From assembly GCA_002423615.1 (NCBI GenBank), contig DIKO01000049.1, forward strand, positions 40,264 to 104,263: a stretch of DNA of 64,000 nt, read 5' to 3'. This DNA comes from Desulfobacteraceae bacterium UBA5616. Lineage in GTDB: Bacteria > Desulfobacterota > Desulfobacteria > Desulfobacterales > UBA5616. Positions within the stretch are counted from its first letter, which is position 1, and every line of letters starts with the position of its first letter. The position numbers were made by a program, and so were the translations under genes. The notes beneath the pieces were generated by a model. It saw only the letters and a list, made by a program, of their open reading frames with translations, was not told the origin of the DNA and searched no databases. Below are positions 18,470 to 51,196 of the stretch, one piece after another.

Positions 18470-18547
18470 TTGTTTGCCCTCCTGGATTACAATTTTTGTT
18501 GAACCGGCAATAAATCCATATTTGCCGAAAGCTTGCCCATGCTTTTA

Positions 18548-30991: not shown

Positions 30992-33900
30992 ATGAGTTTG
31001 AAAGTCCCTGATTTTTCACCAGCGCAATGGGAATTTATAGCCGCAACCCAGGCCTTTGAGGAGCCGGTATCGGTTCATATCATCGGAGCCCTTGTGCCCC
31101 TGTCTCCGGGGGAAATTTTGGATCTGCTTCGAAAAAGCCTTAAATTAAAATGGATTCACAGATCCGAGGAAGACCTGTTTTCATTGACCGCAGATATTCC
31201 CGAGCAGGTGGCGGCTGTTTTACAGAAAATAAATACACCTGAAAAAATCGCGGGAATCATTGAATTTCTTGAAACAAAGGGGCTGGTGGAACAGGTTCCC
31301 GGGGGTGCATATGCCAGACTGCTTCAAAGATCCGGAAAAGAGAAAAAAGCCATCAGGCTGGAAATGGACATGGCCATTGAGGCGCTGAAAAAAGGAGATA
31401 AAGAAGGCGCTAAGGTCCACATCCAGCAAGTGGAGGCCCTGCTTCCCGCCATAGAAGGGTCCCCGGACAGTCATCCCTGGTTTATACAGAGCGCGATCGA
31501 ACTTTCACAACATTGCGAGGCGAGGGCGGTTGGATTTTCCCTGGTATTCGGCCTGTTGGAAAAAGTCCTTGTCATGGCCCACGGCATCGGCGATGAAAGG
31601 AGCTGGACCATCGCTAATTTCCTGCTCGGCAGGGCTTACTGGAGTGTGAATAAACTGCAGGAGGCCATTCAATTTTTATCCAGGGGCAAGGCCAAGGCGG
31701 AGGAACTCGGCGACAGCGATATCCTGACCCAATCCGCCCCGTTTGTCGGCATTTACTATTTTATTAAAGGTCTTCATAACCAGGCCGTCCCCTACCTTGA
31801 AATGGCGGTGGAGTTCGCCGAGGACAGCGACAAGTATCCCATGAATTTTGAATCCCCCATTTTACTCGCCTATTGCGACGTCGACCGGGGAGATTTCCAT
31901 CGGGCTATCGGGAAGATTGATTTTTTCAGGCATTCGGCCCTGCGGGTTGAGGATTACTACATCGCTTCGCTGTATCGCGCGGTTCTGGGCATCATCCTCT
32001 GGCTCATCAAGAAAAGAAAGGAATCCCTGTTCCATCTGGAGAGAAGCCAGACCGACGCTTTGGCCACCCAGAACATGGTAGCGTACTGGACAAGCCTTTA
32101 CGGTCTTTCCGCCTTATATTTGAGTGAAGGGGATATCGAAACAGGACTTGCCATACTGAAACAGGCAATAAAAATCGCTGAGCAATTCGGCATGGGGCAT
32201 CAAATTTTTCACTCCATTTTCCTTGAAAGCTATGCAACGGTTGAACAGGCCGGATGGAAGCTCCCCGCCGGTTGGAGCTTCAACGAACTATTTGAGCGGA
32301 TCATGAGGGAGCCGAATATCCATGTGCAAGGGGTGGCCTTACGTATCCGCGCCTCCAGGACCATGTTGATGTCGCCCTATGAATCCGCGCCGGTGATAAA
32401 GGACCTGGACCACAGCGAAGTGTTGTTGAAAAAATGCGGCGATCCCGTGGAACTGGCCAAAACCCATATTGAAAAAGCCCGGTATTATTTAAAGCAGAAA
32501 GATACGGAAAAGGCAAGGGAACTGACCTATGCGGCATACCAGTTGATGTCCGGATACAGTGAGGTTTTTTTTCCGGATGACCTTCGCTTTCTTCTGGGAG
32601 ATGAGAACAAGGAGATTCGGTCACGGCAGGAACCGGAGGATATGGTCGAACCCTTTGTCCGGATGCTGGAGGAACTGATCCCCGGTCCGTTCCAAACTCG
32701 GGAAATTGATGCCCTGCTGTCCACCCTTTCGCGGTTTTTCAGGGCTGAAAGATCAGCCTTGTTTTTATTTCAGGACCAGAAGGGGAAAAACTATGAAATA
32801 AAGGCTGCGAGAAATTTGTCGCAGAGCATTATTCAGGCTGAAAATTTTCGTGATAACCTGGCCGTCATCTTTAAAAGCGTTCACGAGAAAAAACCCATCG
32901 TCATTCAATCCAGCGGTGTACGAAATCGCCTGGCCTCGGGTAGCCGTTTATCCATGTTATGCCTCCCCTTGATAGAGGACAATAAAGTACTCGGCGTTTT
33001 GTACTTTGATAATTCCTACCTGGACAATTGCTTTGATTTTATCAAAACGCCGACCCTCAGCCGTTTGGGGCACTATTTGACCAACGTTATCGGAAATTAT
33101 TTGCGGATTGAACAGAGAGCCGCGTCCGTGGAAACGACCCCGCAGATGAACACCGTCATGGATATAGCGGGAAATCAAAATATTTTCGCCGAAGATCCCA
33201 ACATGAAGCGTATTTTGCAGCAGGCGGAAAAACAGGCCCGGTCGGATGCGGCCATTCTGCTCATGGGGGAGACCGGGGCCGGAAAGGAAGTACTGGCCAG
33301 GTGGATTCACCGCATGAGCAACCGGAAGCGAAACCCCTTTGTGGTGGTGGATCTGACGACCATCCCCGAGAATTTAATGGAAAGCGAATTGTTCGGGCAT
33401 GAAAAAGGCGCTTTTACGGGAGCGGACCACCAGAAAATCGGCCGTGTGGAATTGGCCCATCACGGCACGTTGTTCATTGATGAAATCGGAGAAATTTCAC
33501 GCGGTCTTCAGACCAAGCTCCTGAGACTTCTTCAGGAGAAATCCTTTGTCAGAATCGGGGGAACAAAGACCCTCATCTCCGATTTTCGGCTCATCTCCGC
33601 AACAAACCGCAATCTTACCGAAGAAATTGCCGCAGGTCGATTCCGCGAGGACCTGTATTATCGGCTGAATGTCCTTGAGCTCACCATCCCTCCCCTGAGG
33701 AACCGGAAAAAGGATATCCTGCCGCTGGCCCGGTATTATCTTCTCCATTATGCCAAAAAATACCATGTTTCAATGCCGGAGATCAACCAGGAACAAGAGT
33801 CGGCGCTTATGGAATATCATTGGCCGGGAAACGTCAGAGAACTTAAAAACGTTATTGAAAGAGCGGTCATTGTTGCCGACGGCGGTCCGCTTGAATTTGA

Positions 33901-34099
33901 TTTCACCCTGAGAAGCCTCGAACACGAAAACAACCCGTTCGCTGATTTACCAAGCCTGGACGAAATTCAACGCCGTTACATCCGATATGTCATGGAGCAC
34001 ACAAAAGGGAGAATCGGAGGTCCGGAAGGCGCAGCTGAAATCCTGGGGATGAAAAGGACAAGCGTCAATTCCAGGATGATTCGCCTGGGTTTGAAATAA
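30992..34099 (+). CDS. sigma54-dependent transcriptional activator (EBP-3), same architecture as EBP-1 and EBP-2
   Basis: GETGAGKE (from 33266), GAFTGA (33407..33424), FREDLYYRLNV, and the HTH AAEILGMKRTSVNSRMIRLGL. The GAF-like block includes LCLPLIEDNKVLGVLYFDNSYLDN. Confidence 0.9.
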   Translation: MSLKVPDFSPAQWEFIAATQAFEEPVSVHIIGALVPLSPGEILDLLRKSLKLKWIHRSEEDLFSLTADIPEQVAAVLQKINTPEKIAGIIEFLETKGLVEQVPGGAYARLLQRSGKEKKAIRLEMDMAIEALKKGDKEGAKVHIQQVEALLPAIEGSPDSHPWFIQSAIELSQHCEARAVGFSLVFGLLEKVLVMAHGIGDERSWTIANFLLGRAYWSVNKLQEAIQFLSRGKAKAEELGDSDILTQSAPFVGIYYFIKGLHNQAVPYLEMAVEFAEDSDKYPMNFESPILLAYCDVDRGDFHRAIGKIDFFRHSALRVEDYYIASLYRAVLGIILWLIKKRKESLFHLERSQTDALATQNMVAYWTSLYGLSALYLSEGDIETGLAILKQAIKIAEQFGMGHQIFHSIFLESYATVEQAGWKLPAGWSFNELFERIMREPNIHVQGVALRIRASRTMLMSPYESAPVIKDLDHSEVLLKKCGDPVELAKTHIEKARYYLKQKDTEKARELTYAAYQLMSGYSEVFFPDDLRFLLGDENKEIRSRQEPEDMVEPFVRMLEELIPGPFQTREIDALLSTLSRFFRAERSALFLFQDQKGKNYEIKAARNLSQSIIQAENFRDNLAVIFKSVHEKKPIVIQSSGVRNRLASGSRLSMLCLPLIEDNKVLGVLYFDNSYLDNCFDFIKTPTLSRLGHYLTNVIGNYLRIEQRAASVETTPQMNTVMDIAGNQNIFAEDPNMKRILQQAEKQARSDAAILLMGETGAGKEVLARWIHRMSNRKRNPFVVVDLTTIPENLMESELFGHEKGAFTGADHQKIGRVELAHHGTLFIDEIGEISRGLQTKLLRLLQEKSFVRIGGTKTLISDFRLISATNRNLTEEIAAGRFREDLYYRLNVLELTIPPLRNRKKDILPLARYYLLHYAKKYHVSMPEINQEQESALMEYHWPGNVRELKNVIERAVIVADGGPLEFDFTLRSLEHENNPFADLPSLDEIQRRYIRYVMEHTKGRIGGPEGAAEILGMKRTSVNSRMIRLGLK

Positions 34100-34226: not shown

Positions 34227-34242
34227 AGCTCCTTTATGGCAC
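34227..34242 (+). promoter_or_regulatory. sigma54 (-24/-12) promoter P3
   Basis: TGGCAC-ACAGA-TTGCA is an exact consensus match. It lies about 107 nt upstream of the 73-aa ORF and is preceded by an (AAAT)4 AT-tract at 34194..34210. Confidence 0.8.
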
Positions 34243-34348
34243 ACAGATTGCATTATCCTTCTTCAAATCTTATCGATTTATTTTCTGCAATCATTTTCAG
34301 AAGGTCATTCGCAATCAATTCCGACCAGCACTTTAAAGGGGGGGCGTA

Positions 34349-34570
34349 ATGAAAAGAATACTCAAGGACACCAAGGATTCAAAAAAAATTTTTAAGGACA
34401 TGGGAATGAACAAGTGGCGCGAGGTCGCCATTCCCAAAATCAAAAAGGGAGATCGATTCAGAATTTACTCTCAGGCCGGCCGTCCTCTTGAACTGGGGGG
34501 TGAAGAAACCCTTGTGGCCCAGTCCGACGCCTTTCAGGTCGACGGCGTCTGGGCTGTCGAAATCAACTGA
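34349..34570 (+). CDS. Small hypothetical protein (73 aa), first ORF behind P3
   Basis: MKRILKDTKDSKKIFKDMGMNKWREVAIPKIKKGDRFRIYSQ..., with an AAAGGGGGG RBS. No family was recognised. Confidence 0.5.
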   Translation: MKRILKDTKDSKKIFKDMGMNKWREVAIPKIKKGDRFRIYSQAGRPLELGGEETLVAQSDAFQVDGVWAVEIN

Positions 34571-34652: not shown

Positions 34653-35900
34653 ATGCCACGAGAAGGCAATAAAAGCGGCGTGATTTTAGGAGGGGAGCTT
34701 CCAAGGGAAGTGACCATGCTGGAGCTTTTGTTAAGAGACGGGTTGCAGCATGTGGACAAAGTTATTCCGGCGGAAGCCAAAGTATGGTATGCGGAACAGC
34801 TCGTCAAGGCGGGTTACCGTCATATCGAGGTGACCAATTTTGGACACCCGAAGACCCTGGTTCAGTTCAGGGACGCGGAAGAAGTGCTGGAACGGGTTCA
34901 TAAACTTAAAATTGTCCAGGAGGAAAAACCCCACCTGAAATGTTATGCCATGACCAAAAGGGCCTTTGAACGGGCCGCGGAAATGGCCCAGAAAGGATTT
35001 CCGCCGTCCAGTTGTGCCTTCACCATATCGGCGGAGGACCTCCACGGCAGGAGAAACTCCGGGCGCACCCGTGAGGAATATCTGAAGGAAATCCCAGAGT
35101 TTATTAAAATCGCCGAAGCCAACGGTTTCGAAATCGACATGGCCATTGCCTGCACTTACGGCTCCGCCATCGCCGGTCCGGTTCCTATTGAAAACACCGT
35201 AGAACTCATGGAATGGGGCCTGGATCACGGCATACGGAATTTCACACCCTGCGATACAACCGGCGAATGCAATCCAAGAACCGCCTTCGAATACATGTCC
35301 ACGCTGGTGGACCGGTTCGGTAAACATGACGACCGGATCAAATTCAGGGTTGCTCATTTTCATGAGGGCAGGGGAATGTCTCTTGCCAACACCATCGCCT
35401 GTATCCAGGCCGGCGCGGAGATCGTTGAAAGCTCGGTGGGCATGGGCGGCGGCCAGCCTGCTTTTTTTGTGGAAGGCATTCCCGGAAAGGGCAGCGGACC
35501 CATTTATACCAATTCCTGGGAAGTGGGAAACTGCCCCACGGAAGACGCCCTGGTCATGATCGATGAGATGGGGATCGAGACGGGTATCGATATTGACCAG
35601 ATGCTTTGTATCGGCCGCGTGTTTGAATGGACCATGCAGCGCACCCTGCCGGTCTGGACCACCAAGTCCGGACGGCCCATTAAATATCCCGTTCAGTGGT
35701 GTATCCCCGGAAACAGCCTGGAACATATACCGCCCTATGGTCCGCCCCAGATGTTCTGGGCGTCTCCTGAAAAATACATACCTGCCTCAAAGGAATTTAT
35801 CGACCGGGAGTTCTCCGGCAGAAGTTTTAAATGGGGCAAGACCAAGGACTGCGAGGACGAATATTGTCGGATCGAAATTTTTGAAGATGAAGACAAATAA
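34653..35900 (+). CDS. HMG-CoA lyase-like (DRE-TIM metallolyase) protein with C-terminal extension
   Basis: LLLRDGLQHV matches the RDGLQ motif typical of HMG-CoA lyases. HFHEGRGMSLANTIACIQAG matches the H.H...G..AN metal site. Strong RBS GGAAGGAGGAGG. The 415-aa length exceeds typical HMGL. Confidence 0.75.
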   Translation: MPREGNKSGVILGGELPREVTMLELLLRDGLQHVDKVIPAEAKVWYAEQLVKAGYRHIEVTNFGHPKTLVQFRDAEEVLERVHKLKIVQEEKPHLKCYAMTKRAFERAAEMAQKGFPPSSCAFTISAEDLHGRRNSGRTREEYLKEIPEFIKIAEANGFEIDMAIACTYGSAIAGPVPIENTVELMEWGLDHGIRNFTPCDTTGECNPRTAFEYMSTLVDRFGKHDDRIKFRVAHFHEGRGMSLANTIACIQAGAEIVESSVGMGGGQPAFFVEGIPGKGSGPIYTNSWEVGNCPTEDALVMIDEMGIETGIDIDQMLCIGRVFEWTMQRTLPVWTTKSGRPIKYPVQWCIPGNSLEHIPPYGPPQMFWASPEKYIPASKEFIDREFSGRSFKWGKTKDCEDEYCRIEIFEDEDK

Positions 35901-35918
35901 CTGAAAAAGGAGCCATTG

Positions 35919-37880
35919 ATGACTGACAACAAGAAGATTCCCGAACAAGAGATTCCCTGGGGTGAACTGGATCTGCATCCTAACGCAAGTACGTATCTGG
36001 CGGAGGCGCTGGTGGAACACGGTGTGGAAATCGCATTCGGCGTGTCCGGAGGCCATATCTGGCAGATGTGCGATGAAATGAGCCTGGCCGGCATCAAAAC
36101 CATCACCGTCCGTCACGAACAAACCGGTGCCTATGCCGCCGAAGCTTATTCCAAAGTCACGCGAAAACCAGGCGTTTGTTACGGAACCGTCGGACCGGGG
36201 GTCGGTAATGCCCTGAGCGGAATCCAACAGGCCCATGAAAGCAATTCACCGGTTCTTTTTCTGGGCGGCGGCAACAGCCCGGAATCGGATTACCTGCCGG
36301 TGATTCAACCCTCTTATGTTCTCGACCTGTTCCGGCATATCACCAAGTATTGCCAGCGCCTGGTGGAACCTTCGATGTTCAAGCAGAATATCGCCAGGGC
36401 CTTCATGGCCATGCAGTCCTACCCCAAGGGGCCGGCTGCTTTGGAAGTCCCGGGATCAGCACTTTTCAGACCGGTTCCGCCGAAGGGTCCTGCCGGTATG
36501 ATGGGGCAGCATGCGCTGTACCAGGGAAAATGGCTCAGGGAAAAAACAGGAGATGCGCCCGAGCCGGGCGGGGATCCCGAGATGATCGCCAAGGCGATTA
36601 AGCTGCTGTGGGAATCCAAGAAGCCCGTTATTTTTGCAGGAGACGGCGTTCACTGGGCCAATGCCGCAGCCGAACTGGTGGAGTTCGCCGAACTGGTGAA
36701 GATTCCGGTTGTCACACGGCGAATCGCCAGAGGCAGCATGCCGGAAAACCATCCCCTGTATCTGGATTCCAGAACAGGCCGGGCCGCCATCAGCCAGAGC
36801 GATATCCGGTTGGGGCTGGGCATGAAAATCGGATTGTTCGACAACTGGGGAAAAGGTTGGGGCCCGACCATTCAGGTCAATGAAGGGTGGGAACACATCT
36901 GGACCTACGTGGATACTCCGGCGGCCATCGTCGGGAGCGTACGGATCGTTTTGAAACAAATGATGGAATACATCCGGCAGAACAACCTGAAACCGCCGGC
37001 AGGCCGGGATGAATGGGTTGAAACATGCCGCAAGGTGCAAATGGGCGGATTGGATGCCCGCAGGGCTAAAGCCGAACAATACAAGGACCATACCCCGGTC
37101 CATTACGGCTATCTGGCCAAGAAGGCCTGGGATGTCTGTGAGTCGGTCTACGGCGGAATGAACCGGGTGATCCTGGACGGCTACACCATTTCGGATTTTG
37201 CACCGGCTTTTATCCAGGCACGGTTTTCCGGACAGATCATGGATGCTTCGGAATATGCCGGCGTCGGGCATGGGGTGGGCATGGCCATCGGTGCGGCGTT
37301 CGGTGATCCGGAATCAAAAAAACATCCCATATTGGCTCTGATGGGAGATGCCGGGATGGGGATCGCCGGTATGGATTACGAGACGGCGCTGATCCACAAA
37401 CTGCCCATCGTTTACCTGGTCACGGAAAACAGAGGCTGGTTGACGGGCATGAAGCATGTGGTGTACGGGGAACACTGGGAAGCCAAGGGGCCCCAGGACC
37501 AGGCTCACGGCGAGGAAGGTGTGGACAACGCCCGTTATGACAAACTTTGTGAAATTTTTGGCGGCCACGGGGAATATGTCGCCAAACCCGATGAGATCGT
37601 TCCGGCACTGACCCGGGCTTTTAAGGCCGCCGAGAACGGCGTGCCCGCCATCGTGAACGTTCACATGGATCCCCGGGTGCACAACCGGCAGCTCATCGCA
37701 CCGTCTTATGCCGCCAGTTGGGCACATCTGCCATGGAATAAACTGGCGCCCAGGGCAAAGGCGGCCAGACGGGCCTGGTTCGGTATGGCCTATCCATTTG
37801 ACCAGTACGGAATTCCGCCGATGAGCCTGCCTGATCCATGGGAGCCGGTGAAAGACGATGAGGATTTTACCATTGAGTAA
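35919..37880 (+). CDS. Thiamine-diphosphate-dependent enzyme (acetolactate synthase / oxalyl-CoA decarboxylase / 2-hydroxyacyl-CoA lyase superfamily), long form
   Basis: N-terminal Pyr domain FGVSGGHIWQMCDE...RHEQTGAYAAEAY...GPGVGNALSGIQQA. The ThDP-binding block GDAGMGIAGMDYETA...VTENRGW is also present. The protein is about 650 aa with an extra C-terminal tail. The start is at ATG 35919, 7 nt after AAAGGAG. Confidence 0.85.
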   Translation: MTDNKKIPEQEIPWGELDLHPNASTYLAEALVEHGVEIAFGVSGGHIWQMCDEMSLAGIKTITVRHEQTGAYAAEAYSKVTRKPGVCYGTVGPGVGNALSGIQQAHESNSPVLFLGGGNSPESDYLPVIQPSYVLDLFRHITKYCQRLVEPSMFKQNIARAFMAMQSYPKGPAALEVPGSALFRPVPPKGPAGMMGQHALYQGKWLREKTGDAPEPGGDPEMIAKAIKLLWESKKPVIFAGDGVHWANAAAELVEFAELVKIPVVTRRIARGSMPENHPLYLDSRTGRAAISQSDIRLGLGMKIGLFDNWGKGWGPTIQVNEGWEHIWTYVDTPAAIVGSVRIVLKQMMEYIRQNNLKPPAGRDEWVETCRKVQMGGLDARRAKAEQYKDHTPVHYGYLAKKAWDVCESVYGGMNRVILDGYTISDFAPAFIQARFSGQIMDASEYAGVGHGVGMAIGAAFGDPESKKHPILALMGDAGMGIAGMDYETALIHKLPIVYLVTENRGWLTGMKHVVYGEHWEAKGPQDQAHGEEGVDNARYDKLCEIFGGHGEYVAKPDEIVPALTRAFKAAENGVPAIVNVHMDPRVHNRQLIAPSYAASWAHLPWNKLAPRAKAARRAWFGMAYPFDQYGIPPMSLPDPWEPVKDDEDFTIE

Positions 37881-38047: not shown

Positions 38048-39619
38048 ATGAATCTTGCGGACGGACTGAGGATCAGTTCATGGAAGAACCCGGACAAGGT
38101 GGCGGCCGTGTTCGAAGAAAAACGCGTCACCTATGAGGAATTGAACAAAAGGGCCAACCGCCTTTCCCATGCCATGCTTCAAAAAGGATTTAAGCGCCAG
38201 GAAAAGGCTTCCATCATCATGTACAACAATATCGAATTCCTGGAAATTTACCACGGGCTGGCCCGGGCCGCACTCATTTCGGTGCCCGTGAATTTCAGAC
38301 TGGTTCCCGCGGAACTTGAATATGTGATCAACAATTCCGATTCAACCGCCCTTTTTATCGGCTGTGAATTTCTGGAAAAGGTCAATCTGAAAAATATCCC
38401 GATGGTCCGGAAGGATAATGTCATTGTTGTCGGACCCAGGGAGCAGACTCCGGCCGGGTTTATGAATTATGAGGATTTCATCGGCGGGCAACCCGAACAC
38501 GAACCGGACAACGTCCTTCAGCAGGAAAGCGATATATTTTATTTCGGCTATACCAGTGGAACGACGGGATTCCCCAAGGGAGCGATGAACACATCCCGGG
38601 GGACCATCGATATCATAAAAAACCTTTTTGTCCGAACCGGGAACCGGAAAGCGGTGGATCTGTCCAGCCGCGTTTTTCTGGCCATCATCCCCATCTGTCA
38701 CTCAAACAGCGTCTGGGCCACCTTGATCACCTTCTGGGTGGGCGGCACCAACGTGATTTTTCCATCGGGAAAATATGATCCTGAAAAGGTGTTGAAAACC
38801 ATATCCCGGGAAAAGGTGACCACCACGTCCATGGTGCCCACCATGATCACCCGGATCATGGAATTGCCGGATGAGGTTAAGAATCAATATGACATCAGTT
38901 CGTTGACTTCCCTGGGGTCTTCATCGGCGCCGTTGATGACGAAAACCAAGGAAGAAGCGCTTCAGTTCTTTAAAAACGTCCGTTTCAGCGAGGGGTATGG
39001 TTCAACCGAAACAGGCGCCCTGACCACCCTGCGCTTCAAGGACCAGAAACGGAAAGTCCGCAGCATCGGCCAACCCAATCCCGGAATTGAAATTAAATTG
39101 ATCGACGAAGACGGAAACGTGGTGACGGAACCCCATAAATCCGGGGTCCTGTGGGCAAAGACCCGGTCCGCATTCATCGGATATTACAAAGAACCCAAAA
39201 AAACCAGGGAATCCATTGACGGGGAGTGGTCCACTGCAGGTGATGTGGCCTATTTCGATGAAGAGGGCTACTATTATCTGAGCGACCGCAAACACGACAT
39301 GATTATTTCCGGCGGGGAAAATATTTACCCGGCGGAGATCGAAGAAGTCATCTCCAAACTTCCGGAAGTTTCAGAGGTTGCGGTGATCGGCATTCCCAAC
39401 GAGGAGTTCGGCGAGGAAGTCAAGGCCATTGTCAAGCTGGTTGAGGGCAAAGTCCTGACGGAAAAGCAGATACTGGACCATTGCAAGGAACATCTTGCGG
39501 GCTATAAGCGCCCCCGGTCCGTGGATTTTGTGACGGACTTCCCGAGAACAGCCACCGATAAAATACTCAAGAGACTGATTCGTGCGCCCTATTGGAAAAA
39601 CCAGGAACGAAACATTTAA
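38048..39619 (+). CDS. AMP-forming acyl-CoA ligase (ANL superfamily)
   Basis: YTSGTTGFPKGA (A3 motif), GYGSTE, YYYLSDRKHDMIISGGENIYPAEIE and PRTATDKILKR (A10 lysine region). GGAGG lies 8 nt upstream. Confidence 0.9.
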   Translation: MNLADGLRISSWKNPDKVAAVFEEKRVTYEELNKRANRLSHAMLQKGFKRQEKASIIMYNNIEFLEIYHGLARAALISVPVNFRLVPAELEYVINNSDSTALFIGCEFLEKVNLKNIPMVRKDNVIVVGPREQTPAGFMNYEDFIGGQPEHEPDNVLQQESDIFYFGYTSGTTGFPKGAMNTSRGTIDIIKNLFVRTGNRKAVDLSSRVFLAIIPICHSNSVWATLITFWVGGTNVIFPSGKYDPEKVLKTISREKVTTTSMVPTMITRIMELPDEVKNQYDISSLTSLGSSSAPLMTKTKEEALQFFKNVRFSEGYGSTETGALTTLRFKDQKRKVRSIGQPNPGIEIKLIDEDGNVVTEPHKSGVLWAKTRSAFIGYYKEPKKTRESIDGEWSTAGDVAYFDEEGYYYLSDRKHDMIISGGENIYPAEIEEVISKLPEVSEVAVIGIPNEEFGEEVKAIVKLVEGKVLTEKQILDHCKEHLAGYKRPRSVDFVTDFPRTATDKILKRLIRAPYWKNQERNI

Positions 39620-39797: not shown

Positions 39798-41096
39798 ATG
39801 AGTCAGGAAAAAGAAGTCAAAACCAAAGGATCGAAAAAATCCCTTCAGACAGCCCGGAATACGTTTAAATTCATCGTCGAGGACTACCTTCAGGGCCATG
39901 CCCATAAACAAGAGGGAAAGCCCGTCGTGTGGTCCTGCGCCCTTGCGGAAAAAGAACTTTTTTATGCCATGGGGCTTCACCCCTACTACCCGGAAAATTA
40001 TGCGGCGGTCTGCGCCACCCAGAGAAAAAACAGAGATCCGTCTGCAGAAAAGGAAGCGGTCCGTTTTGCCAAGATTGCCGAACAGGCCGGGTATTCCGCG
40101 GATTTATGCGGATATCAAAGGGTGGCTACCGGCTACATCATGAACGACGACCTGACCGATGCACCACTGGGGGGGATGCCCGCCCCGGATTTAATGGTGA
40201 CCACATCCAGCGTTTGCGATGTTCGCCTTAAATGGTTTGAAGACATGGCCCAGCGCCTGAATGTACCGCTTTTCACGCTGGATCGTCCGGAACGGGTTTT
40301 TAACGATATCCGGCGGCATCCCATGCCCCATGAAGTCAAATATTACAAATCCATTCTCGAGGACTACATGTCCTTTGTCACCGATGTTACCGGCATTCGA
40401 TACGATGAAGACCGGTTAAGGGAATGCATGGAATGGAGCTACAAAACCAATGAAGTCCGTTTGGAGATACTGGATCTGAGAAAAGCCGTCCCCTCACCCA
40501 TGGGATGTGCCGACGGGTTCGCCACCATGTATCCGGGCATGTACTGCTCGGGAACGGAAAAGGCCTACAACTACTACAAGGAACTGAGGGATGAGGTCAA
40601 GGCAAAGGTCCTTGCCGGGGAAGGCATCATTCAGAATGAGAAGTTCCGTCTCATGTGGTACGGGATTCCCCTGTGGTTCAATATGGGGATATTTAATTAT
40701 TTTGAAGATATCGGCGGCGTGTTCGCCTATGAACCGGCTTACAACCCCTCTCCCTGGCCGCAGTCGACAGGGGATGATCCCTTGACCGAACTGGCCATCC
40801 GCTCTCTTTACACCGGAACGTCGATGAGTTCCGGCATGAGTTCGATACTGGAACAATGCCGGGAATATCATATCAACGGAGCGGTGCTGGCCTTTTTATT
40901 GACCTGCCGACCGGTTTACCTGCCGGCGCTGGAAACCAAACGGATACTGGAAAAAGAACTCGGTATCCCCTCCGTGATGATCGAATGTGATCTGGTTGAC
41001 GAGCGGAGTTATTCCGAAGCCCAGGTTAAAACACGGATGGATGCTTTTGCGGAACAGATTCTAGGCCAATTGGAAGCGAAAAAGGAGGTGGCTTGA
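39798..41096 (+). CDS. Benzoyl-CoA reductase / 2-hydroxyacyl-CoA dehydratase family catalytic subunit (BcrB/BzdO/HgdA-like)
   Basis: 432 aa. GKPVVWSCALAEKELFYAMGLHPYYPENYAAVCA is typical of the N-terminus of this family (HGD-D type). Confidence 0.8.
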   Translation: MSQEKEVKTKGSKKSLQTARNTFKFIVEDYLQGHAHKQEGKPVVWSCALAEKELFYAMGLHPYYPENYAAVCATQRKNRDPSAEKEAVRFAKIAEQAGYSADLCGYQRVATGYIMNDDLTDAPLGGMPAPDLMVTTSSVCDVRLKWFEDMAQRLNVPLFTLDRPERVFNDIRRHPMPHEVKYYKSILEDYMSFVTDVTGIRYDEDRLRECMEWSYKTNEVRLEILDLRKAVPSPMGCADGFATMYPGMYCSGTEKAYNYYKELRDEVKAKVLAGEGIIQNEKFRLMWYGIPLWFNMGIFNYFEDIGGVFAYEPAYNPSPWPQSTGDDPLTELAIRSLYTGTSMSSGMSSILEQCREYHINGAVLAFLLTCRPVYLPALETKRILEKELGIPSVMIECDLVDERSYSEAQVKTRMDAFAEQILGQLEAKKEVA

Positions 41097-41097
41097 T

Positions 41098-42267
41098 ATG
41101 AACGAGATCTTTGCCCAGTATTGCAATAATCGCCATGATATGGCGCGAAAATGGAAGCAGGAAACCGGCAAAAAAGTGTACGGTTATTTTTGCTGCATGT
41201 CACCTGAAGAAATTCTGTTTGCAGCGGATATCCTGCCGGTGCGTATTACGGGAACCGGCGAGCCGCTTCAGAAGGCGGATCTGCATGTTCCCCCCAATTC
41301 CTGCCCCTTTGCCCGTTCCTGCCTGGATGCCGGAATGCAGGGGCATTACGATTATCTGGACGGGGTTGTGGTTCCCAACAGCTGCGATATTATTTTCAGC
41401 ATGGAATACCTTTGGAAGACCCTGGTCAAACGCCCCAATCCGCCTTCAATGGTGGGCGGAATCGACTTGAAGCCCTACGTTCACTATATCAATTACCCGG
41501 AAAAAATTAACAGCCGGGGAGTATTGCCGTTTTACAAGGAAGTTTTGAGCATATTCAAACAGGAACTGGAACGCGGCAACAACCGTCTCATTACCGATGA
41601 GGATATGTCCCGTGCCATAACGGCATACAACGATGACAAATTTCAACTCAAGCGCCTCTACGAGATGCGAAAGACCGACCCACCGGCAGTATCGGGGTTT
41701 GAAGCCTGGCAGGCCGTTTATGCCAGTATTTTGATGCCCAAGGACCAGCACGCGGCCCTGTTGAAAGAATCACTGGACGAGATCGAAAAAACCGGACGGA
41801 AAGCGGAAGAAGGCGTAAGGATTTATCTGTCCGGTTCGGCCATGGATCGGGTGAATGCCGATATCATCAAGGTCATTGAAGAGTGCGGCGGTCAGGTGGT
41901 CACCGACGACCTGTGCGTTGGCACACGCAGCTTCTGGTACCCCATCAGCACGGAATTACCGCCACTGGAAGCCATTGCCCGGCGCAGCCTGGGGACGGCC
42001 TGCCCCAGAAGCACGGTCAAGGAGCGGATCCCCGAGAACCGGTGGGCTCATATCGTGAACACCATAAAAGGATATGACGTTGAGGGGGCGATTTTTTACG
42101 TGTTAAAATGTTGTGACGCGCGACTGGGTGAATATCCGCATTTAAGAGACAAGATCAAGGAAGAAATGGGGTTGCCGTCCCTTTTTCTGGAAGGCGATTA
42201 CACCGCCGAAGGGGTTGAACAGATGCGGGGCAGGGTGGAAGCATTCATTGAAATGATCGGAGGGTAA
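41098..42267 (+). CDS. Benzoyl-CoA reductase / 2-hydroxyacyl-CoA dehydratase family catalytic subunit (BcrC/BzdN/HgdB-like)
   Basis: 389 aa. KKVYGYFCCMSPEEILFAADILPVRITG...CPFARSCLD. The start is 1 nt after the upstream stop. Confidence 0.8.
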   Translation: MNEIFAQYCNNRHDMARKWKQETGKKVYGYFCCMSPEEILFAADILPVRITGTGEPLQKADLHVPPNSCPFARSCLDAGMQGHYDYLDGVVVPNSCDIIFSMEYLWKTLVKRPNPPSMVGGIDLKPYVHYINYPEKINSRGVLPFYKEVLSIFKQELERGNNRLITDEDMSRAITAYNDDKFQLKRLYEMRKTDPPAVSGFEAWQAVYASILMPKDQHAALLKESLDEIEKTGRKAEEGVRIYLSGSAMDRVNADIIKVIEECGGQVVTDDLCVGTRSFWYPISTELPPLEAIARRSLGTACPRSTVKERIPENRWAHIVNTIKGYDVEGAIFYVLKCCDARLGEYPHLRDKIKEEMGLPSLFLEGDYTAEGVEQMRGRVEAFIEMIGG

Positions 42268-42270
42268 TCC

Positions 42271-43071
42271 ATGCCGTTTTATGCCGGGATCGATGTCGGC
42301 GCCCAGAGCATCAAGGTCGTTGTTTTTGACGGAGAAAAAATTCTGGGCGCCAGGATCGTCGTTACGGAAGACGAGGCCAATCGCGCTGCCCAGCGGATTT
42401 ATGAGGATCTTCTGGGTGAATTGAAGCTTTCCGGATCTGATGTCGAAAAAATATATGTCACTGGATGGGGCGCCGATGACGTTTTATTCGCCGACGGAAA
42501 AAGTTCGGAACAGGTTTGCGCCGCCAAGGGGGCCCGCTTTTTAATCCCGACGGCAAGAACCATTCTGGACATGGGGGCCGAAGGGTCCCGTGTCATGAAG
42601 CTTTCCGCCGACGGTATCCTGGAGGAATTCGTCAATAATTCGAAGTGTGCATCGGGAACCGGGTCTTTTATCGAACTGGGGGCCGTTTACCTTCAGGTCC
42701 CCATCGAACAAATGGGACCCCTGTCATTATCCGCCGACGGGTCTGCGGATGTCAGCAGCACCTGTGCCGTATTCGCCGAATCCGTCATTATTTCGAATAT
42801 TCACAAAGGGGAACCCCTTGAACGGATAGCCGCCGGAATTCATAAATCGGCGGCAACCCGCGTTTCGGAACTTCTGGGCAGGATCGGCAAGGTGGACGAC
42901 GTGGTATTCGTGGGAGGACCGGCGAAAAACCGCGGATTGGTCAGAATCCTGGAGGAAATGAGCGGTGTCTCCTTCAAGATCCCGGACAACCCCCAGATCG
43001 TTGTGGCCCTCGGTGCGGCTCTTCAGGCCTCCACGAAACAAAAACGAAAGCGCCGAAAGGGTGCAACGTAA
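42271..43071 (+). CDS. BadF/BadG/BcrA/BcrD-type ATPase (electron-activating subunit 1)
   Basis: MPFYAGIDVGAQSIKVVVF matches the ASKHA phosphate-1 motif. The cluster-bridging Cys contexts NNSKCASGTGSFIE and SSTCAVFAES are present. Confidence 0.85.
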   Translation: MPFYAGIDVGAQSIKVVVFDGEKILGARIVVTEDEANRAAQRIYEDLLGELKLSGSDVEKIYVTGWGADDVLFADGKSSEQVCAAKGARFLIPTARTILDMGAEGSRVMKLSADGILEEFVNNSKCASGTGSFIELGAVYLQVPIEQMGPLSLSADGSADVSSTCAVFAESVIISNIHKGEPLERIAAGIHKSAATRVSELLGRIGKVDDVVFVGGPAKNRGLVRILEEMSGVSFKIPDNPQIVVALGAALQASTKQKRKRRKGAT

Positions 43072-43097
43072 TTTTATTCATGCAAGGAATGAGACCT

Positions 43098-43877
43098 ATG
43101 TTTGTTGCGGGAATCGATATCGGATCAGCCGCCACCAAGGCAGTCCTGTTGAACCAGACGGAAATCGTCGCTTCTCATATCATTGAAACCGGGCCCAGGA
43201 GCCGGGCAACGGCGGAAGAAGCGATGAAGGGCATCCTGGAAAAAAGCGGGTTGAACAGCGGCGATCCGGGATATATTGTAGCCACCGGTTATGGCCGGAT
43301 CAATGTGCCCAGCGCCAATGAAATTATCACGGAAATCGCCTGCCATGCCAAAGGGGTGAACGCCGTTTTCCCCAAGGCCAGGACGATTCTGGATATGGGT
43401 GGACAGGACTGCAAGGCCATCCGCATTGACCACAAAGGCAGGCATGTGGCATTTGTCATGAACGACAAATGCGCCGCCGGGACAGGCCGGTTCCTGGATA
43501 TCATGGCCCAGATGCTGAAAGTGCCGCTGAGTGAAATCGGGCCTTTGTCCATGGAAGCCAGGGAAGATATCAAGATCAGCAGTGTCTGTGGGGTGTTCGC
43601 CAGGTCCGAGGTTGCCCGACATCTGAGACGGGGTGTGAGCAAGGCCGATATCCTGGGAGGACTGCACGCCTCGGTTGCAGACCGGGTTTACGGAATCCTA
43701 AAACGAGTCGGGATCGAAGAGGATTTCGTGATTTCGGGCGGAATCGGAAAAAACATCGGGGTCGTTAGGCGGGTCGAAGCCAAGGTCGGCCTTCCCGCTT
43801 ATATTTCTGATGAACCCCAGCTCATCGGTGCCTTGGGCGCCGCATGTTTCGCCAGGGAAAGGGTGAGCCAGGGGTAA
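43098..43877 (+). CDS. BadF/BadG/BcrA/BcrD-type ATPase (electron-activating subunit 2)
   Basis: MFVAGIDIGSAATKAVLL, MNDKCAAGTGRFLD and SSVCGVFARSE. It is distinct in sequence from subunit 1. The start is chosen at ATG 43098 (AAGGAA 8 nt upstream); the track ORF opens at 43080. Confidence 0.85.
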   Translation: MFVAGIDIGSAATKAVLLNQTEIVASHIIETGPRSRATAEEAMKGILEKSGLNSGDPGYIVATGYGRINVPSANEIITEIACHAKGVNAVFPKARTILDMGGQDCKAIRIDHKGRHVAFVMNDKCAAGTGRFLDIMAQMLKVPLSEIGPLSMEAREDIKISSVCGVFARSEVARHLRRGVSKADILGGLHASVADRVYGILKRVGIEEDFVISGGIGKNIGVVRRVEAKVGLPAYISDEPQLIGALGAACFARERVSQG

Positions 43878-43888
43878 AAGGATCATGC

Positions 43889-45985
43889 ATGGATATCAGA
43901 ACTTATTGTCCGGATAAACTGGTCACCGCCGAGGAGGCCGTCTCCCATATCAAACGGGGAAGCCGCGTTTTCGTGGGTTCGGGAGCCGGAGAGCCCACCC
44001 ATCTGGTGGAAGCCATGGTCCGGAACCCCGATCTTTACGATATCATCATCTACCAGATGCTTTCCTGGTCGCTCGCCGATTATGTGAACGATAATGATTT
44101 TCTCCGTCGTTTCTCGTTAAAACTCTTTTTTATCAGCAGCAATATGAGGGAGGCGGCTTTTCAGGGAAAAATCGACTACATCCCCGCCTATATCTCGAAA
44201 ATACCGACGCTTTTCTCGACCCGGCAGATTGGACTGGACGTCGCCCTGATTCAGGTCAGCGTACCCGATGAATTCGGTTATTGCAGTCTGGGCATCTCCG
44301 TGGATATCACCCGTTCCGGGATGGAAAATGCGGATCTGGTCATCGCCCAGGTCAATCCGCGGATGCCGCGAACTTTCGGGGCGACATTCGTGCATGTGGA
44401 CGATATCGATTTCCTGGTCTGGCATGAGAAAAATCTGGTTGAAACCATCCGTACCGTAAGCGAACGGGAGCAGGACGTCACCGAGAGAATCGGCCGATAT
44501 GTAGCCCAGCTGGTGGATGACGGCGCCACCCTCCAGATCGGGTTTGGATTTCTTTCCCTCTCCATATTGAAATACCTTGATGATAAAAAGGACCTGGGCG
44601 TTCATACCCAGATGATCACCGATTCGTTTCTGCCCCTGTTTAAAAAAGGCATCATCAACAACCGGAAAAAGACCCTTCTTCCGGGTATGGCCGTGGCCTC
44701 GCTGTGCATGGGATCCGAGAAAATCTTTAATTACGTGGACAGCAATCCCATGTTTTATTTCCGGTCCTCGGATTTTGTAAACGACCCCATCCAGATAGCC
44801 CGGAACGACAATATGGTCTCCATTTCCTCGGCCCTCGAGGTGGATTTGACCGGCCAGGTGTGTTCAGACTCCATGGGGTCGCGTTTTTATTCCGGCATCG
44901 GTGACCAGGTTGATTTTTTAAGGGGTTGCTCCATGTCCAGGGGGGGCATTTCCATCATCGCCCTGCCGTCAACCGCTAAAAACGGAACGGTGTCACGCAT
45001 AGTTCCTTTTTTAAGCGAGGGCGCCGGCGTTGCCACCACCCGTGGGGACGTGGATTTCGTGGTAACGGAATACGGCATCGCCGCTTTGCAGGGGAAGGGA
45101 ATATATCAGCGGGTCATGGAACTGGCCCAGATCGCACACCCGGACTTCAGGGCGGAGCTTATCGATTCGGCAAAAAACAGGCGGTATATTTTTCCGGACC
45201 AGCTTCCGCCCGCCCAGGAAGACCTCCTGTTCATTGAGGAATATAAAAGCACTTTCCCGATGAAAAACCGTAAAACATTGGAGGTCCGGCCTTTGCTGCC
45301 TTCGGATGAATTCGAGATCCGGAACTTTTTCTATTCCCTCCAGGACCGTACCATTTACATGAGATTTTTTTACGAAATGAAGCTGTTTTCCCATGAAGTG
45401 GTTCAGATGGAGTGGGCCAGCCTGGATTATCGGAAAAATATGTCTCTGATCGGTCTTGTAAAGGTCGGCGGGCATAAGGAGATCAAGGCCATAGGCTCCT
45501 ACGCCAGGGGGCACGGTGAAGACGATGAGGACTGTGCTGAAATCGCCTTTGTGGTGAGTGAAGAATATCAGGGCATGGGCATCGCCTCCTGTCTTCTGGA
45601 CAAGCTGGAGGGAATTGCGCGAAAAAACGGTTATAAGAGGTTCGGCGCCACAGTGATGAGAGAAAACATCTCCATGCTCCGGGTTTTCCGGAAACGTTAC
45701 CCCGATGCCCGGGTCTCACCTACCGAGACCGACGAGTACCGTGTGATCATGACGTTTTACGATCATCTGATACCTGAAAACACGCTGACCAACGAAATCC
45801 GGAATCAGGTCTACAGTCAGTTGAAAGACCGTCTGGGCAAGGAAATGGTCAATCAATTATTAACGGATTTCAAGAAGACCGAAGCCTTTGATGAACTCGT
45901 GGAAAAGGCTTCGCGGGATCAACTGGATTTTGAACAGGCGGTTAAGGACATGGCCGCCGGGTGGCTCGACGGCATTCCCCGGTAA
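43889..45985 (+). CDS. Acetyl-CoA hydrolase/CoA-transferase family domain fused to a C-terminal GNAT acyltransferase domain
   Basis: N-terminal RVFVGSGAGEPTHLVEAM and EVDLTGQVCSDSMGSRFYSGIGDQVDFLRG match the Cat/ACH1 family. The C-terminal AEIAFVVSEEYQGMGIASCLLDKLEGIARKNGYKRF is a GNAT A-motif, from about 45300. The start is at MDIR. Confidence 0.8.
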   Translation: MDIRTYCPDKLVTAEEAVSHIKRGSRVFVGSGAGEPTHLVEAMVRNPDLYDIIIYQMLSWSLADYVNDNDFLRRFSLKLFFISSNMREAAFQGKIDYIPAYISKIPTLFSTRQIGLDVALIQVSVPDEFGYCSLGISVDITRSGMENADLVIAQVNPRMPRTFGATFVHVDDIDFLVWHEKNLVETIRTVSEREQDVTERIGRYVAQLVDDGATLQIGFGFLSLSILKYLDDKKDLGVHTQMITDSFLPLFKKGIINNRKKTLLPGMAVASLCMGSEKIFNYVDSNPMFYFRSSDFVNDPIQIARNDNMVSISSALEVDLTGQVCSDSMGSRFYSGIGDQVDFLRGCSMSRGGISIIALPSTAKNGTVSRIVPFLSEGAGVATTRGDVDFVVTEYGIAALQGKGIYQRVMELAQIAHPDFRAELIDSAKNRRYIFPDQLPPAQEDLLFIEEYKSTFPMKNRKTLEVRPLLPSDEFEIRNFFYSLQDRTIYMRFFYEMKLFSHEVVQMEWASLDYRKNMSLIGLVKVGGHKEIKAIGSYARGHGEDDEDCAEIAFVVSEEYQGMGIASCLLDKLEGIARKNGYKRFGATVMRENISMLRVFRKRYPDARVSPTETDEYRVIMTFYDHLIPENTLTNEIRNQVYSQLKDRLGKEMVNQLLTDFKKTEAFDELVEKASRDQLDFEQAVKDMAAGWLDGIPR

Positions 45986-46545: not shown

Positions 46546-46561
46546 TGGCATATCCATTGCA
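46546..46561 (+). promoter_or_regulatory. sigma54 (-24/-12) promoter P4
   Basis: TGGCAT-ATCCA-TTGCA with correct spacing, about 145 nt upstream of the thiolase-like start. Confidence 0.75.
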
Positions 46562-46707
46562 TAGTTATAATTACTCTTTTTTAATATGCAGGCCCATGCC
46601 CGGAAACGCAGCGAAATTTGAAGGCGGTTGATTTTTAAATTGCCGTAATACCGACAGTCTTTTTTGCGGACAGCTCATTTAAATTGATAACATGTGAGGA
46701 GGTTAGT

Positions 46708-47838
46708 ATGAGTCAAAAAGAATGTGCAATTGTCGGTCTAGGGTATACCCCCCAGGGAAAATGCCCGGACTGGAGCGTAAGAGAGCTTTTTCTGGAGGCC
46801 AGTGTGAATGCCATCAAGGATGCGGGTATGAAGCCCCATGATATCGACGGTATTCTGGTCGAACTCTGCTGGACCGATCCGACCACCCAAAACTGGTCTT
46901 TACAGATGGACCTGGGAATCCCCGAGCTGAGTCTTTCGGCGGTTTATGATTCCATGGGCGCATCTCCCGGATGCCAGATGCAGGTTGCCCAATGGGCCAT
47001 TCAAAACGGGATCTGCAAAAATGTTTTGTGTGCCTTTGTGGAAAAATCCGCAACAGCACCGGCGGTGCCATACCGCATGAGTGCCGGGCCGGGACTGGCT
47101 TACGGACTTCACGGCGCCATGCACGGTATCGCCCTGGCCGCCATGCGTCATAAAATGCTGTACGGGACCACCAGCGAACAGCTTGGGGAGGTGGCCGTAA
47201 CATTCCGGAAACACGCCCAGTTGAATCCCAAGGCCCAGATGTACGGCAAACCCATGACCCTTGCGGACCATCAGAATTCCCGGATCATTGCCGAACCCCT
47301 GCATCTTTTCGACTGCTGTCTGGTATCCGATGGTGGACGGGCCGCGGTTATTACATCGGGGGACCGGGCAAAGGATTGTCCTCAGCCGCCGGTTTATATC
47401 ATGGGATACGGTCAGGGTCATGTGAAGATGGATCTTATTGAAAGAAACACCCTGGTGGACACCGGAGCCGGAGTCTCCGGGGCACATGCTTTCAGGACCG
47501 CCGGTATCCAGCACAAAGACATCGATGTCCTGGGACTGTACGATGCCACCACCCATAACATCATCACCCAGCTCGAGGAACTGGGATTCTGCGAAAGGGG
47601 TGAAGGCGGGCCCTTTGTCGAAAACGGCCGTTTGTCCATTGATGGTGAATTCCCCACCAATCTTTCAGGTGGCATGCTCTCCGAAACCTACCTCCAGGGA
47701 TGGACCGGAATTCCGGAAATCGTCAGCCAGCTTAGAGGCCACTGCGGGGACCGCCAGGTCAAGGATGCCAAAATCGGGCTGGTCACCAACCAGGGCGGAT
47801 ATATCGCATTTCATTCAACTCTAATTTTGCGGAGGTAA
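46708..47838 (+). CDS. Thiolase-like protein (SCP-x / BbsB / Ltp-type)
   Basis: MSQKECAIVGLGYTPQGK..., with a C-terminal thiolase fold ending ...NLSGGMLSETYLQGW...GLVTNQGG. The start is at ATG 46708, after GAGGAGG. Confidence 0.8.
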   Translation: MSQKECAIVGLGYTPQGKCPDWSVRELFLEASVNAIKDAGMKPHDIDGILVELCWTDPTTQNWSLQMDLGIPELSLSAVYDSMGASPGCQMQVAQWAIQNGICKNVLCAFVEKSATAPAVPYRMSAGPGLAYGLHGAMHGIALAAMRHKMLYGTTSEQLGEVAVTFRKHAQLNPKAQMYGKPMTLADHQNSRIIAEPLHLFDCCLVSDGGRAAVITSGDRAKDCPQPPVYIMGYGQGHVKMDLIERNTLVDTGAGVSGAHAFRTAGIQHKDIDVLGLYDATTHNIITQLEELGFCERGEGGPFVENGRLSIDGEFPTNLSGGMLSETYLQGWTGIPEIVSQLRGHCGDRQVKDAKIGLVTNQGGYIAFHSTLILRR

Positions 47839-47844
47839 TCTGAT

Positions 47845-48270
47845 ATGACAACCCAGTTTAAAAAACCATCTCCCGGAATTACGCCGGAAACCAAGCCTTT
47901 CTGGGATGCTGCTAAAAGAAATGAATTCATGCTGGTCAAATGCGTGGGTTGCGGTTTTTACCGGAACCCGGTTTCCATCACCGCCAACATCTGCCCGGAA
48001 TGCGGGTCCAGAAAGCCGGGGGAATGGGTGAAGGCCAGCGGCAAGGGCAGGGTCCACACTTACACGGCGGTTCACCGGACTTTTGATCCTTCCTTTGAAA
48101 AAGAACTTCCCTATATCATCGTCATCGTCGAGCTTGAAGAAGGCCCGCGCTTTCTTTCCAACATGAGAGACGCAAAGCCGGAAGACATGAAACTGGACAT
48201 GCCCCTTGAAGTGGTCTTTGAAAAAGTCAGCGACGAGGTGACCGTTCCGTATTTCAAACCCGCAAAATAA
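47845..48270 (+). CDS. DUF35 OB-fold / rubredoxin-like zinc-ribbon protein (thiolase partner, BbsA-like)
   Basis: CVGCGFYRNPVSITANICPECGS is a zinc ribbon, followed by the OB-fold segment GKGRVHTYTAVHR. The protein is 141 aa and directly follows the thiolase-like gene. Confidence 0.8.
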   Translation: MTTQFKKPSPGITPETKPFWDAAKRNEFMLVKCVGCGFYRNPVSITANICPECGSRKPGEWVKASGKGRVHTYTAVHRTFDPSFEKELPYIIVIVELEEGPRFLSNMRDAKPEDMKLDMPLEVVFEKVSDEVTVPYFKPAK

Positions 48271-48283
48271 ATGGGAGGTTCCG

Positions 48284-49072: not shown

Positions 49073-49099
49073 TCGATAGGATTATAAAAGGACTGTGCG

Positions 49100-49909: not shown

Positions 49910-49971
49910 AATATCATTTTAATTTGTACACTGTAGATGGACGTTTGAATTTTCAGGTTGGAGGGAAGAAC

Positions 49972-51159: not shown

Positions 51160-51196
51160 AAAGGACCCTGCCTACTCACGCCAAAGGAGATGTAAA

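Follow-up and report, generated by a model that had tools for sequence, protein, structure and literature searches.

A gene cluster induced by acetone and other short ketones has been described in the sulfate reducers Desulfosarcina cetonica, Desulfococcus biacutus, Desulfotomaculum arcticum, and D. geothermicum (PMC7888143, PMC4103992, PMC8084838). In D. cetonica, a lyase-like protein (105210), a CoA ligase (10527), a thiamine diphosphate (ThDP)-dependent enzyme, and two subunits of a dehydratase/reductase were found at higher levels on acetone, butanone, and isopropanol than on butyrate (PMC7888143), and the CoA transferase is missing from the published list of induced proteins (PMC7888143; PMC8084838). 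The acetone-induced ThDP enzymes share 55% or more identity among the four known degraders, and the ThDP and lyase genes of D. arcticum and D. geothermicum carry consecutive locus tags (PMC8084838). Carbon monoxide was reported as a co-substrate of acetone use (PMC4103992). The roles of the co-induced lyase-like protein, ligase, and dehydratase are unassigned in the literature, and so is the formyl donor (PMC7888143, PMC8084838). We analyzed a stretch of 64,000 nucleotides, hereafter the window, from Desulfobacteraceae bacterium UBA5616 (assembly GCA_002423615.1, contig DIKO01000049.1, positions 40,264 to 104,263), in which a gene for a 3-hydroxy-3-methylglutaryl (HMG)-CoA-lyase-like protein is followed by that for a long ThDP enzyme (34653 to 37880). 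A preliminary description of the window had called this pairing unusual; sulfate reducers that degrade acetone are already known to have it (PMC8084838, PMC7888143). Judging from the encoded proteins, the operon carrying the pair is very probably homologous to the acetone-induced cluster.

Relationship to the acetone-induced cluster

The D. cetonica contig used for comparison was identified as the published cluster by protein mass, the values of 77.6, 64.7, and 28.0 kDa corresponding to 105227, 105217, and 105214 (Table 1, PMC7888143). Shared with this cluster are orthologues of the lyase-like protein (78% identity), the CoA ligase (74%), a CoA transferase-GNAT fusion (63%), and a 73-aa protein (61%), together with a ThDP enzyme of the same long-tailed family and a four-subunit dehydratase/reductase-like enzyme. 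In contrast, the ThDP enzyme of the window belongs to another subclade, with 41-43% identity to D. cetonica 105227, and its dehydratase-like pair is only 29-32% identical to the acetone-induced pair. Searches for orthologues of the B12 mutase, of the 3-hydroxybutyryl-CoA dehydrogenase, and of the radical-SAM neighbour gave none, the operon is without a classical thiolase or carboxyltransferase, and a sigma-54 site takes the place of TetR neighbours. The host, a sulfate reducer with dsrA (3.66 Mb, 96% complete, 121 contigs), also differs in that it carries the alkylsuccinate synthase MasD (860 bits against PDB 9O8U) and that no acetyl-CoA synthase was found. The masD gene is located on another contig (C100:29702-34379, L179), followed by a mutase-like gene, and was detected in five of the six genomes of the family.

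Within the host assembly the best matches to the 2-hydroxyisobutyryl-CoA mutase and to the acetone-pathway dehydrogenase were at 36% and 33%, neither being an orthologue, and four relatives of the family gave no close mutase match and no acetone-type ThDP orthologue; as in the host, their ThDP enzyme and dehydratase derive from other subclades. Most lyase-bearing Desulfobacterota, including the genomes with the acetone cluster, have both the ThDP and the mutase orthologues at 74% identity or higher. Since these two defining features, the acetone-type ThDP enzyme and the mutase/dehydrogenase, failed, the window operon is placed outside the canonical acetone pathway. It is a mutase-free variant, present in likely alkane degraders, of which we found no earlier description, and it probably works with the same chemistry. 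Ordinary use of acetone or butanone by the published route of formylation, B12 mutase, and dehydrogenase, with a mutase that is divergent or unassembled, would agree with the close orthology of the lyase, ligase, CoA transferase, and 73-aa protein and with several host genes of the mutase family at 27-36%. We regard it as very unlikely, because the host ThDP paralogues are only 41-44% identical to the acetone-induced enzyme and include no orthologue of it, the two genes following that enzyme in D. cetonica have no match, and the host family has neither of the orthologues found in the acetone-cluster genomes.

A second mutase-free case is a near-complete genome (G045; loci L019, L135, and L145), in which orthologues of the acetone-type ThDP enzyme (81%), the lyase, and the dehydratase are scattered and no mutase match was detected at E<=1e-120. 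The same gene set was also detected in one Firmicute locus, with 44% and 64% identity to the window proteins for lyase and ligase, respectively. The features of the window operon, all on the plus strand, are as follows.

30992 to 34099 (+): TPR-GAF-AAA+ sigma-54 activator, likely the operon regulator (Pfam; homologue of 59-61% identity at the same place in loci L013-L015)
34237 to 34251 (+): sigma-54 (-24/-12) promoter-like site, TGGCAC-N5-TTGC
34349 to 34570 (+): conserved 73-aa protein of no known family, first gene after the promoter (ORF conservation)
34653 to 35900 (+): HMG-CoA-lyase-like DRE-TIM enzyme of 415 aa, orthologue of D. cetonica Ga0122881_105210 (identity, tree, fold)
35919 to 37880 (+): long-tailed ThDP enzyme, 2-hydroxyacyl-CoA lyase/synthase-like, paralogue of the acetone-induced ThDP enzyme (PDB sequence and fold matches, tree)
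38048 to 39619 (+): AMP-forming CoA ligase, orthologue of D. cetonica 10527 (74% identity)
39798 to 42267 (+): alpha and beta subunits of a 2-hydroxyacyl-CoA dehydratase / class I benzoyl-CoA reductase-like enzyme (Pfam HGD-D)
42271 to 43877 (+): two ATP-dependent activator (BcrAD/BadFG) subunits (domain matches)
43844 to 45985 (+): acetyl-CoA hydrolase-family CoA transferase-GNAT fusion, candidate formate/formyl-CoA transferase (Pfam; 63% to the D. cetonica acetone-cluster homologue)
46546 to 52333 (+): second sigma-54 unit with genes for an Ltp2-like thiolase-fold protein, a DUF35 OB-fold protein, an enoyl-CoA hydratase, an MDMPI-like protein, and two acyl-CoA dehydrogenases

The sigma-54 promoter proposed earlier corresponds to the predicted site at 34237-34251. 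Four matches to this pattern were found in the window against 0.25 expected, and a similar site lies upstream in the related loci L013 and L014; scans for sigma-70 promoters and terminators stayed at chance level. The first gene after this site, overlooked in the preliminary description, is matched at 58-81% identity by ORFs preceding the lyase gene at 18 distinct loci, including that of D. cetonica (61%), and in locus L022 a second copy precedes the acetone-type ThDP gene. Its 73-aa product had no Pfam match, all its ESM Atlas matches were under 0.9, and searches of Chloroflexota and archaeal loci did not reveal it. The gap of exactly 18 nt between the lyase gene and the ThDP gene (ATG at 35919), given correctly before, holds a Shine-Dalgarno sequence. 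Next to the ThDP gene is the CoA ligase gene, in agreement with the earlier statement that no acetolactate synthase (ALS) small subunit follows, and among the loci compared this ligase is the most constant neighbour of the lyase gene. The second sigma-54 unit is also linked in relatives, directly after the CoA transferase in G005 and after the ThDP gene in L183. Elsewhere in the window (16796-20239, minus strand), two tandem FAD oxidoreductases with a weak carotene desaturase match were noted; they may resemble the CtmAB limonene dehydrogenase pair.

The lyase-like protein and the ThDP enzyme

The motifs of the lyase-like protein were as described before: RDGLQ at residues 28-32 and HFH...RGMSLAN, that is the H.H...G..AN signature, at 235-246, with GNxxTED kept and RDGEQ absent, in an open reading frame about 100 aa longer than the solved HMG-CoA lyases (295-320 aa). 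Its product carries the Pfam HMGL-like domain, and the predicted fold, a DRE-TIM barrel, is nearest to HMG-CoA lyases with template-modelling (TM) scores of 0.87-0.90 depending on the target. The identity to D. cetonica Ga0122881_105210 extends over 398 aa, and both proteins fall within one tree clade (100/99). The lyase is placed in a 98/98 clade whose 39 members come from Desulfobacterota, Dehalococcoidia, Peptococcaceae, and Bathyarchaeia, and the sister clade holds a separate host lyase, 34% identical to the window protein and encoded in the methylcrotonyl-CoA carboxylase (leucine) operon on contig C37. Relatives with 84-87% lyase identity are labelled Desulfobacterales or Desulfobacteraceae. 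Identity as isopropylmalate or homocitrate synthase was rejected, as there is no RDGEQ motif and no grouping with LeuA in the tree. Another point missed before is that the loop with canonical GGCP reads GGGQP, of which Gln268 is invariant in the alignment. The Cys of this loop is C266 in the human enzyme. Its absence was considered as a mark of lost HMG-CoA lyase activity and dropped, because the leucine-operon paralogue is also Cys-free. That paralogue (C37:3513-11199, L127) has GGQP for GGCP, as do most Desulfobacterales homologues checked.

The ThDP enzyme consists of 653 aa, close to the 650 aa estimated before; its three Pfam ThDP domains end near residue 581 and are followed by the extra tail of about 70 aa already noticed, which is conserved across the family and is modelled at a predicted local distance difference test (pLDDT) score of 78-92. 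By analogy with the 2-hydroxyacyl-CoA lyase AcHACL, this tail may act as a lid. In sequence, profile, and fold searches, 2-hydroxyacyl-CoA lyases (HACL) and synthases (HACS) and oxalyl-CoA decarboxylases came on top, and ALS ranked well below. The activating Glu67 in the HEQ motif of the PYR domain and Gln130, equivalent to Q128 of AcHACL, are invariant, the ThDP/Mg motif is a variant GDA...N504, and the three-domain fold was recovered in the fold search. Neither the lyase-like protein (132 bits on PRK05692, cut-off 246) nor the ThDP enzyme (175.6 bits on NF058623, cut-off 600) reached any curated NCBIfam cut-off. In the ThDP tree, a quick build with long branches, the window enzyme and the D. 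cetonica enzyme fall in different subclades of one 58-member clade (SH-aLRT 100), and within the long-tailed family the acetone-type enzymes make up a subclade on a long branch; placement near HACL was through search ranks and the E. coli references Oxc, Gcl, IlvB, and IlvI, without PDB sequences.

The placements proposed in the preliminary description set the ThDP enzyme apart from ALS and the lyase clade apart from the leucine-operon paralogue, and the neighbourhood survey showed conserved co-localization of the two genes; the outcome that the description had named as refuting its reading was therefore not observed. Automatic annotations do use the names acetolactate synthase and HMG-CoA lyase, as expected if the two were housekeeping enzymes of branched-chain amino acid synthesis and leucine breakdown standing side by side by chance. 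This reading is refuted by tree and gene context and retains practically no likelihood: the host has true ilvI/ilvH-like pairs on contigs C95 and C107 and the leucine-operon lyase on C37, and the co-occurrence of lyase and ThDP genes is strong.

Three further long ThDP paralogues were found in the host, with 72, 63, and 48% identity. The gene of the 72% paralogue (C95:28340-39000; L133, L170) forms an operon with genes for a DUF1329 protein, a CoA ligase, an acyl-CoA dehydrogenase, a thiolase-like protein, an aldehyde:ferredoxin oxidoreductase, and a ThiS/MoaD-like protein, and is the clearest candidate for action in the cleavage direction.

Direction and order of the putative reactions

Enzymes of the HMG-CoA-lyase type interconvert a tertiary 3-hydroxyacyl-CoA and the pair of ketone and acetyl-CoA; the dehydratase type links a 2-hydroxyacyl-CoA with an enoyl-CoA. 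The HACL-type ThDP enzyme links a carbonyl compound and formyl-CoA with a 2-hydroxyacyl-CoA (PMC8760513, and general knowledge). Ketone release, formylation, and dehydration in this sequence are favoured, since this is the simplest order that uses all the genes without a mutase; this direction and order, in which dehydration replaces the mutase, is our tentative preference, held with rather less than even confidence. Branched acyl-CoAs that beta-oxidation cannot finish would be hydrated to tertiary 3-hydroxyacyl-CoAs, and the metal-dependent DRE-TIM enzyme would then cleave these by retro-aldol reaction to a ketone and acetyl-CoA; the downstream Ltp2-like protein may do likewise for 2-methyl substrates, giving propionyl-CoA. 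The ThDP enzyme would join the ketone with formyl-CoA, possibly supplied from formate by the CoA transferase or ligase, to a tertiary 2-hydroxyacyl-CoA, as proposed for its acetone-induced relative. The ATP-activated four-subunit enzyme, standing in for the B12 mutase, would convert this to a 2-methyl-enoyl-CoA for beta-oxidation.

A number of observations weigh against this order. Acetone degraders induce the lyase on a substrate that is itself a ketone, and release of ketones as its function would not explain this; the 72% ThDP paralogue lies in an operon with an aldehyde oxidoreductase, a setting that suits cleavage. Neither family has a known activity. Extracts of D. cetonica supplied with acetone and formyl-CoA formed no product, and interconversion of a 2-hydroxyacyl-CoA with a carbonyl compound and formyl-CoA was never demonstrated for the long-tailed ThDP family (PMC7888143). 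Glu493, the catalytic acid/base of AcHACL, aligns to Gly510 of the window enzyme, with Gly also in D. cetonica; a residue of this type is likewise uncertain in RuHACL (PMC8760513). The ThDP enzyme and the dehydratase are not orthologues of their acetone-cluster counterparts. The literature expects the formyl donor to come from the acetyl-CoA synthase (Wood-Ljungdahl) pathway, and this synthase was not found in the host (no CdhC match and a weak CdhD match, with Fhs present); two relatives with the same operon (G003 and G005) have it, and the gap in the host is either a loss or an assembly gap. The link to MasD, present in all five family genomes with the lyase and missing together with lyase and ThDP enzyme from the sixth, is based on six related genomes, with the host assembly in 121 contigs. 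The reaction direction is beyond what sequence can settle.

The same genes could run in reverse as an oxygen-independent alpha-oxidation, a reading nearly as good, which we consider possible and yet doubtful. The dehydratase-like enzyme would hydrate a 3-branched enoyl-CoA at C2, the ThDP enzyme would release an aldehyde and formyl-CoA, an aldehyde oxidoreductase and the ligase would return the shortened acid to CoA, and the lyase would feed in ketones by aldol addition to acetyl-CoA. Such a route would explain why acetone induces the lyase and why the formylation assay failed. It is consistent with the aldehyde:ferredoxin oxidoreductases, acyl-CoA dehydrogenases, formyl-CoA-transferase-like protein, and formyltransferase encoded near members of the ThDP family, with the four paralogues and many aldehyde oxidoreductase genes of the host, and with the position of the acetone-type enzymes as a subclade inside the family. 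The window operon, however, contains no aldehyde oxidoreductase, and C2 hydration of 3-branched enoyl-CoAs is probably unfavourable. Characterized HACLs do cleave in vivo (PMC7176365, PMC8760513), whereas alpha-oxidation on acetone needs no net C1 uptake, in spite of the report of CO as co-substrate (PMC4103992). An extension of this idea, in our estimate improbable, is that lyase, ThDP enzyme, and dehydratase together form a route of oxygen-independent alpha-oxidation and one-carbon homologation. A ketone and acetyl-CoA would give a 3-hydroxyacyl-CoA; after loss of water and its re-addition at C2, the ThDP enzyme would split the product into an aldehyde and formyl-CoA. If acetone degraders work likewise, it would be the lyase-like enzyme, and not the ThDP enzyme, that captures acetone or provides the missing formyl donor, which would call for a revision of the published pathway.

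The preliminary description had proposed cleavage or formation of branched hydroxyacyl-CoA intermediates, for example after ring opening of a methyl-branched alicyclic compound. The first part is supported, with a C-C lyase and a 2-hydroxyacyl-CoA lyase-like enzyme acting on branched hydroxyacyl-CoAs; ring opening gained no specific support, and the best anchor is simple-ketone metabolism. If the four-subunit enzyme were a class I aryl-CoA reductase, the operon could serve reduction or opening of the ring of an aromatic or methyl-branched alicyclic acid. Two different activator subunits are present as in class I reductases, one with 238 bits on BzdQ, the genes downstream are similar to those for enzymes acting on steroid side chains (best match Ltp2), and cyclic ketones would fit the same chemistry. 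We nevertheless judge it quite unlikely, as all reductase models stayed far below cut-off, the alpha subunit is nearer HadB (127 bits) than MbdO (110) or BzdO (89), neither a dienoyl-CoA hydratase nor a ring hydrolase was recognized in the set of recurring neighbours, and the closest studied homologues respond to acyclic ketones.

Distribution of the pair and comparison with known systems

In an even sample of 401 genomes of the phylum, the lyase was detected only in the host (G000) and one other genome (G429), and the long-tailed ThDP family only in the same two. Among 39 lyase-bearing genomes, 32 have a long-tailed ThDP gene, and 52 lyase loci of at least 10 kb include the ThDP gene in 23, the ligase in 35, and the dehydratase alpha gene in 12 cases. 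The pairing of lyase and ThDP enzyme exceeds chance. Owing to kinship the loci are not independent, and some are present in more than one collection; the link itself extends over several phyla. The head-to-tail order of lyase and then ThDP gene was found only in four close relatives among 106 loci, and in the others the two genes are convergent, in the opposite order, or separated by kilobases; therefore the link is functional and not one of fixed gene order. Dehydratase-like genes adjoin the ThDP gene in L183, L185, and Dehalococcoidia loci. A literature search returned no relevant work on benzoyl-CoA reductase with thiamine and HMG-CoA lyase, on anaerobic alpha-oxidation, or on alkane degraders with these genes, subscription papers being mostly outside its reach.

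Other arrangements of the family were also observed. In locus L132 (11269-21200) and related loci of Dehalococcoidia, three consecutive ThDP paralogues precede genes for a family III CoA transferase, an Fmt-like formyltransferase, and a dehydratase. The best model for this CoA transferase is formyl-CoA transferase, below cut-off, and a link between formyl-CoA and formyl-tetrahydrofolate is possible in such loci. Four proteins of about 1090 aa (P0227, P0228, P0230, and P0231) are fusions of a long-tailed ThDP enzyme and DUF362, and a DUF362 gene also flanks a dehydratase-like operon on host contig C97. In Bathyarchaeia (L050 and L051), the ligase and lyase genes are adjacent, with two long-tailed ThDP genes nearby in L051.

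These findings bear on how strict anaerobes activate acetone without a costly carboxylase, which is unresolved in the literature found, and point to a second, putative anaerobic way of handling ketones. The ketone module is extended to likely alkane degraders, Dehalococcoidia, and Bathyarchaeia, and may explain how branched hydrocarbons pass blocks of beta-oxidation. As most of the candidate genes sit in one operon, joint expression is feasible.

Ltp2-ChsH2 frees a ketone from a tertiary 3-hydroxyacyl-CoA. This retro-aldolase of steroid side-chain degradation, with ChsH2 as its DUF35 partner (PDB 6OK1), ranks first in the PDB (220 bits) for the thiolase-fold gene downstream, which adjoins a DUF35 gene; the thiolase-fold gene differs in that the two His after the conserved Tyr residues are replaced, and it lies outside the pair at 34653-37880. 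In the alignment, the Ltp2-like protein (46684-47838, plus strand) has no Cys at the usual thiolase position, with both Tyr kept and the following His replaced. With HMG-CoA lyase (EC 4.1.3.4; PDB 1YDO, 2CW6, 2FTP), the lyase-like protein shares the DRE-TIM barrel, RDGxQ, the HxH metal ligands, and GNxxTED. The identity is 22-28%, and the protein differs by GGGQP for GGCP with an insertion in the same loop, by a conserved C-terminal extension of about 70 aa, and by its place outside any leucine operon. The best sequence and fold matches of the ThDP enzyme are the 2-hydroxyacyl-CoA lyases and synthases (AcHACL, PDB 7PT1, PMC8760513; ApbHACS, CfhHACS, and DhcHACS, PDB 8VZ series; RuHACL, 6XN8). 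Common to AcHACL and the window enzyme are the HEQ-motif Glu, the Gln equivalent to Q128, and an extended C-terminus, whereas the identity is about 21-25% in the fold search, the Glu at the E493 position is absent, and the motifs RRxxRG and GDA...ENRGW are family-specific. Compared with the acetone-induced cluster, the window locus separates a constant core of lyase, ligase, and long-tailed ThDP family, joined in Desulfobacterota by the 73-aa protein, from exchangeable parts, namely the ThDP subclade, the dehydratase, and the mutase.

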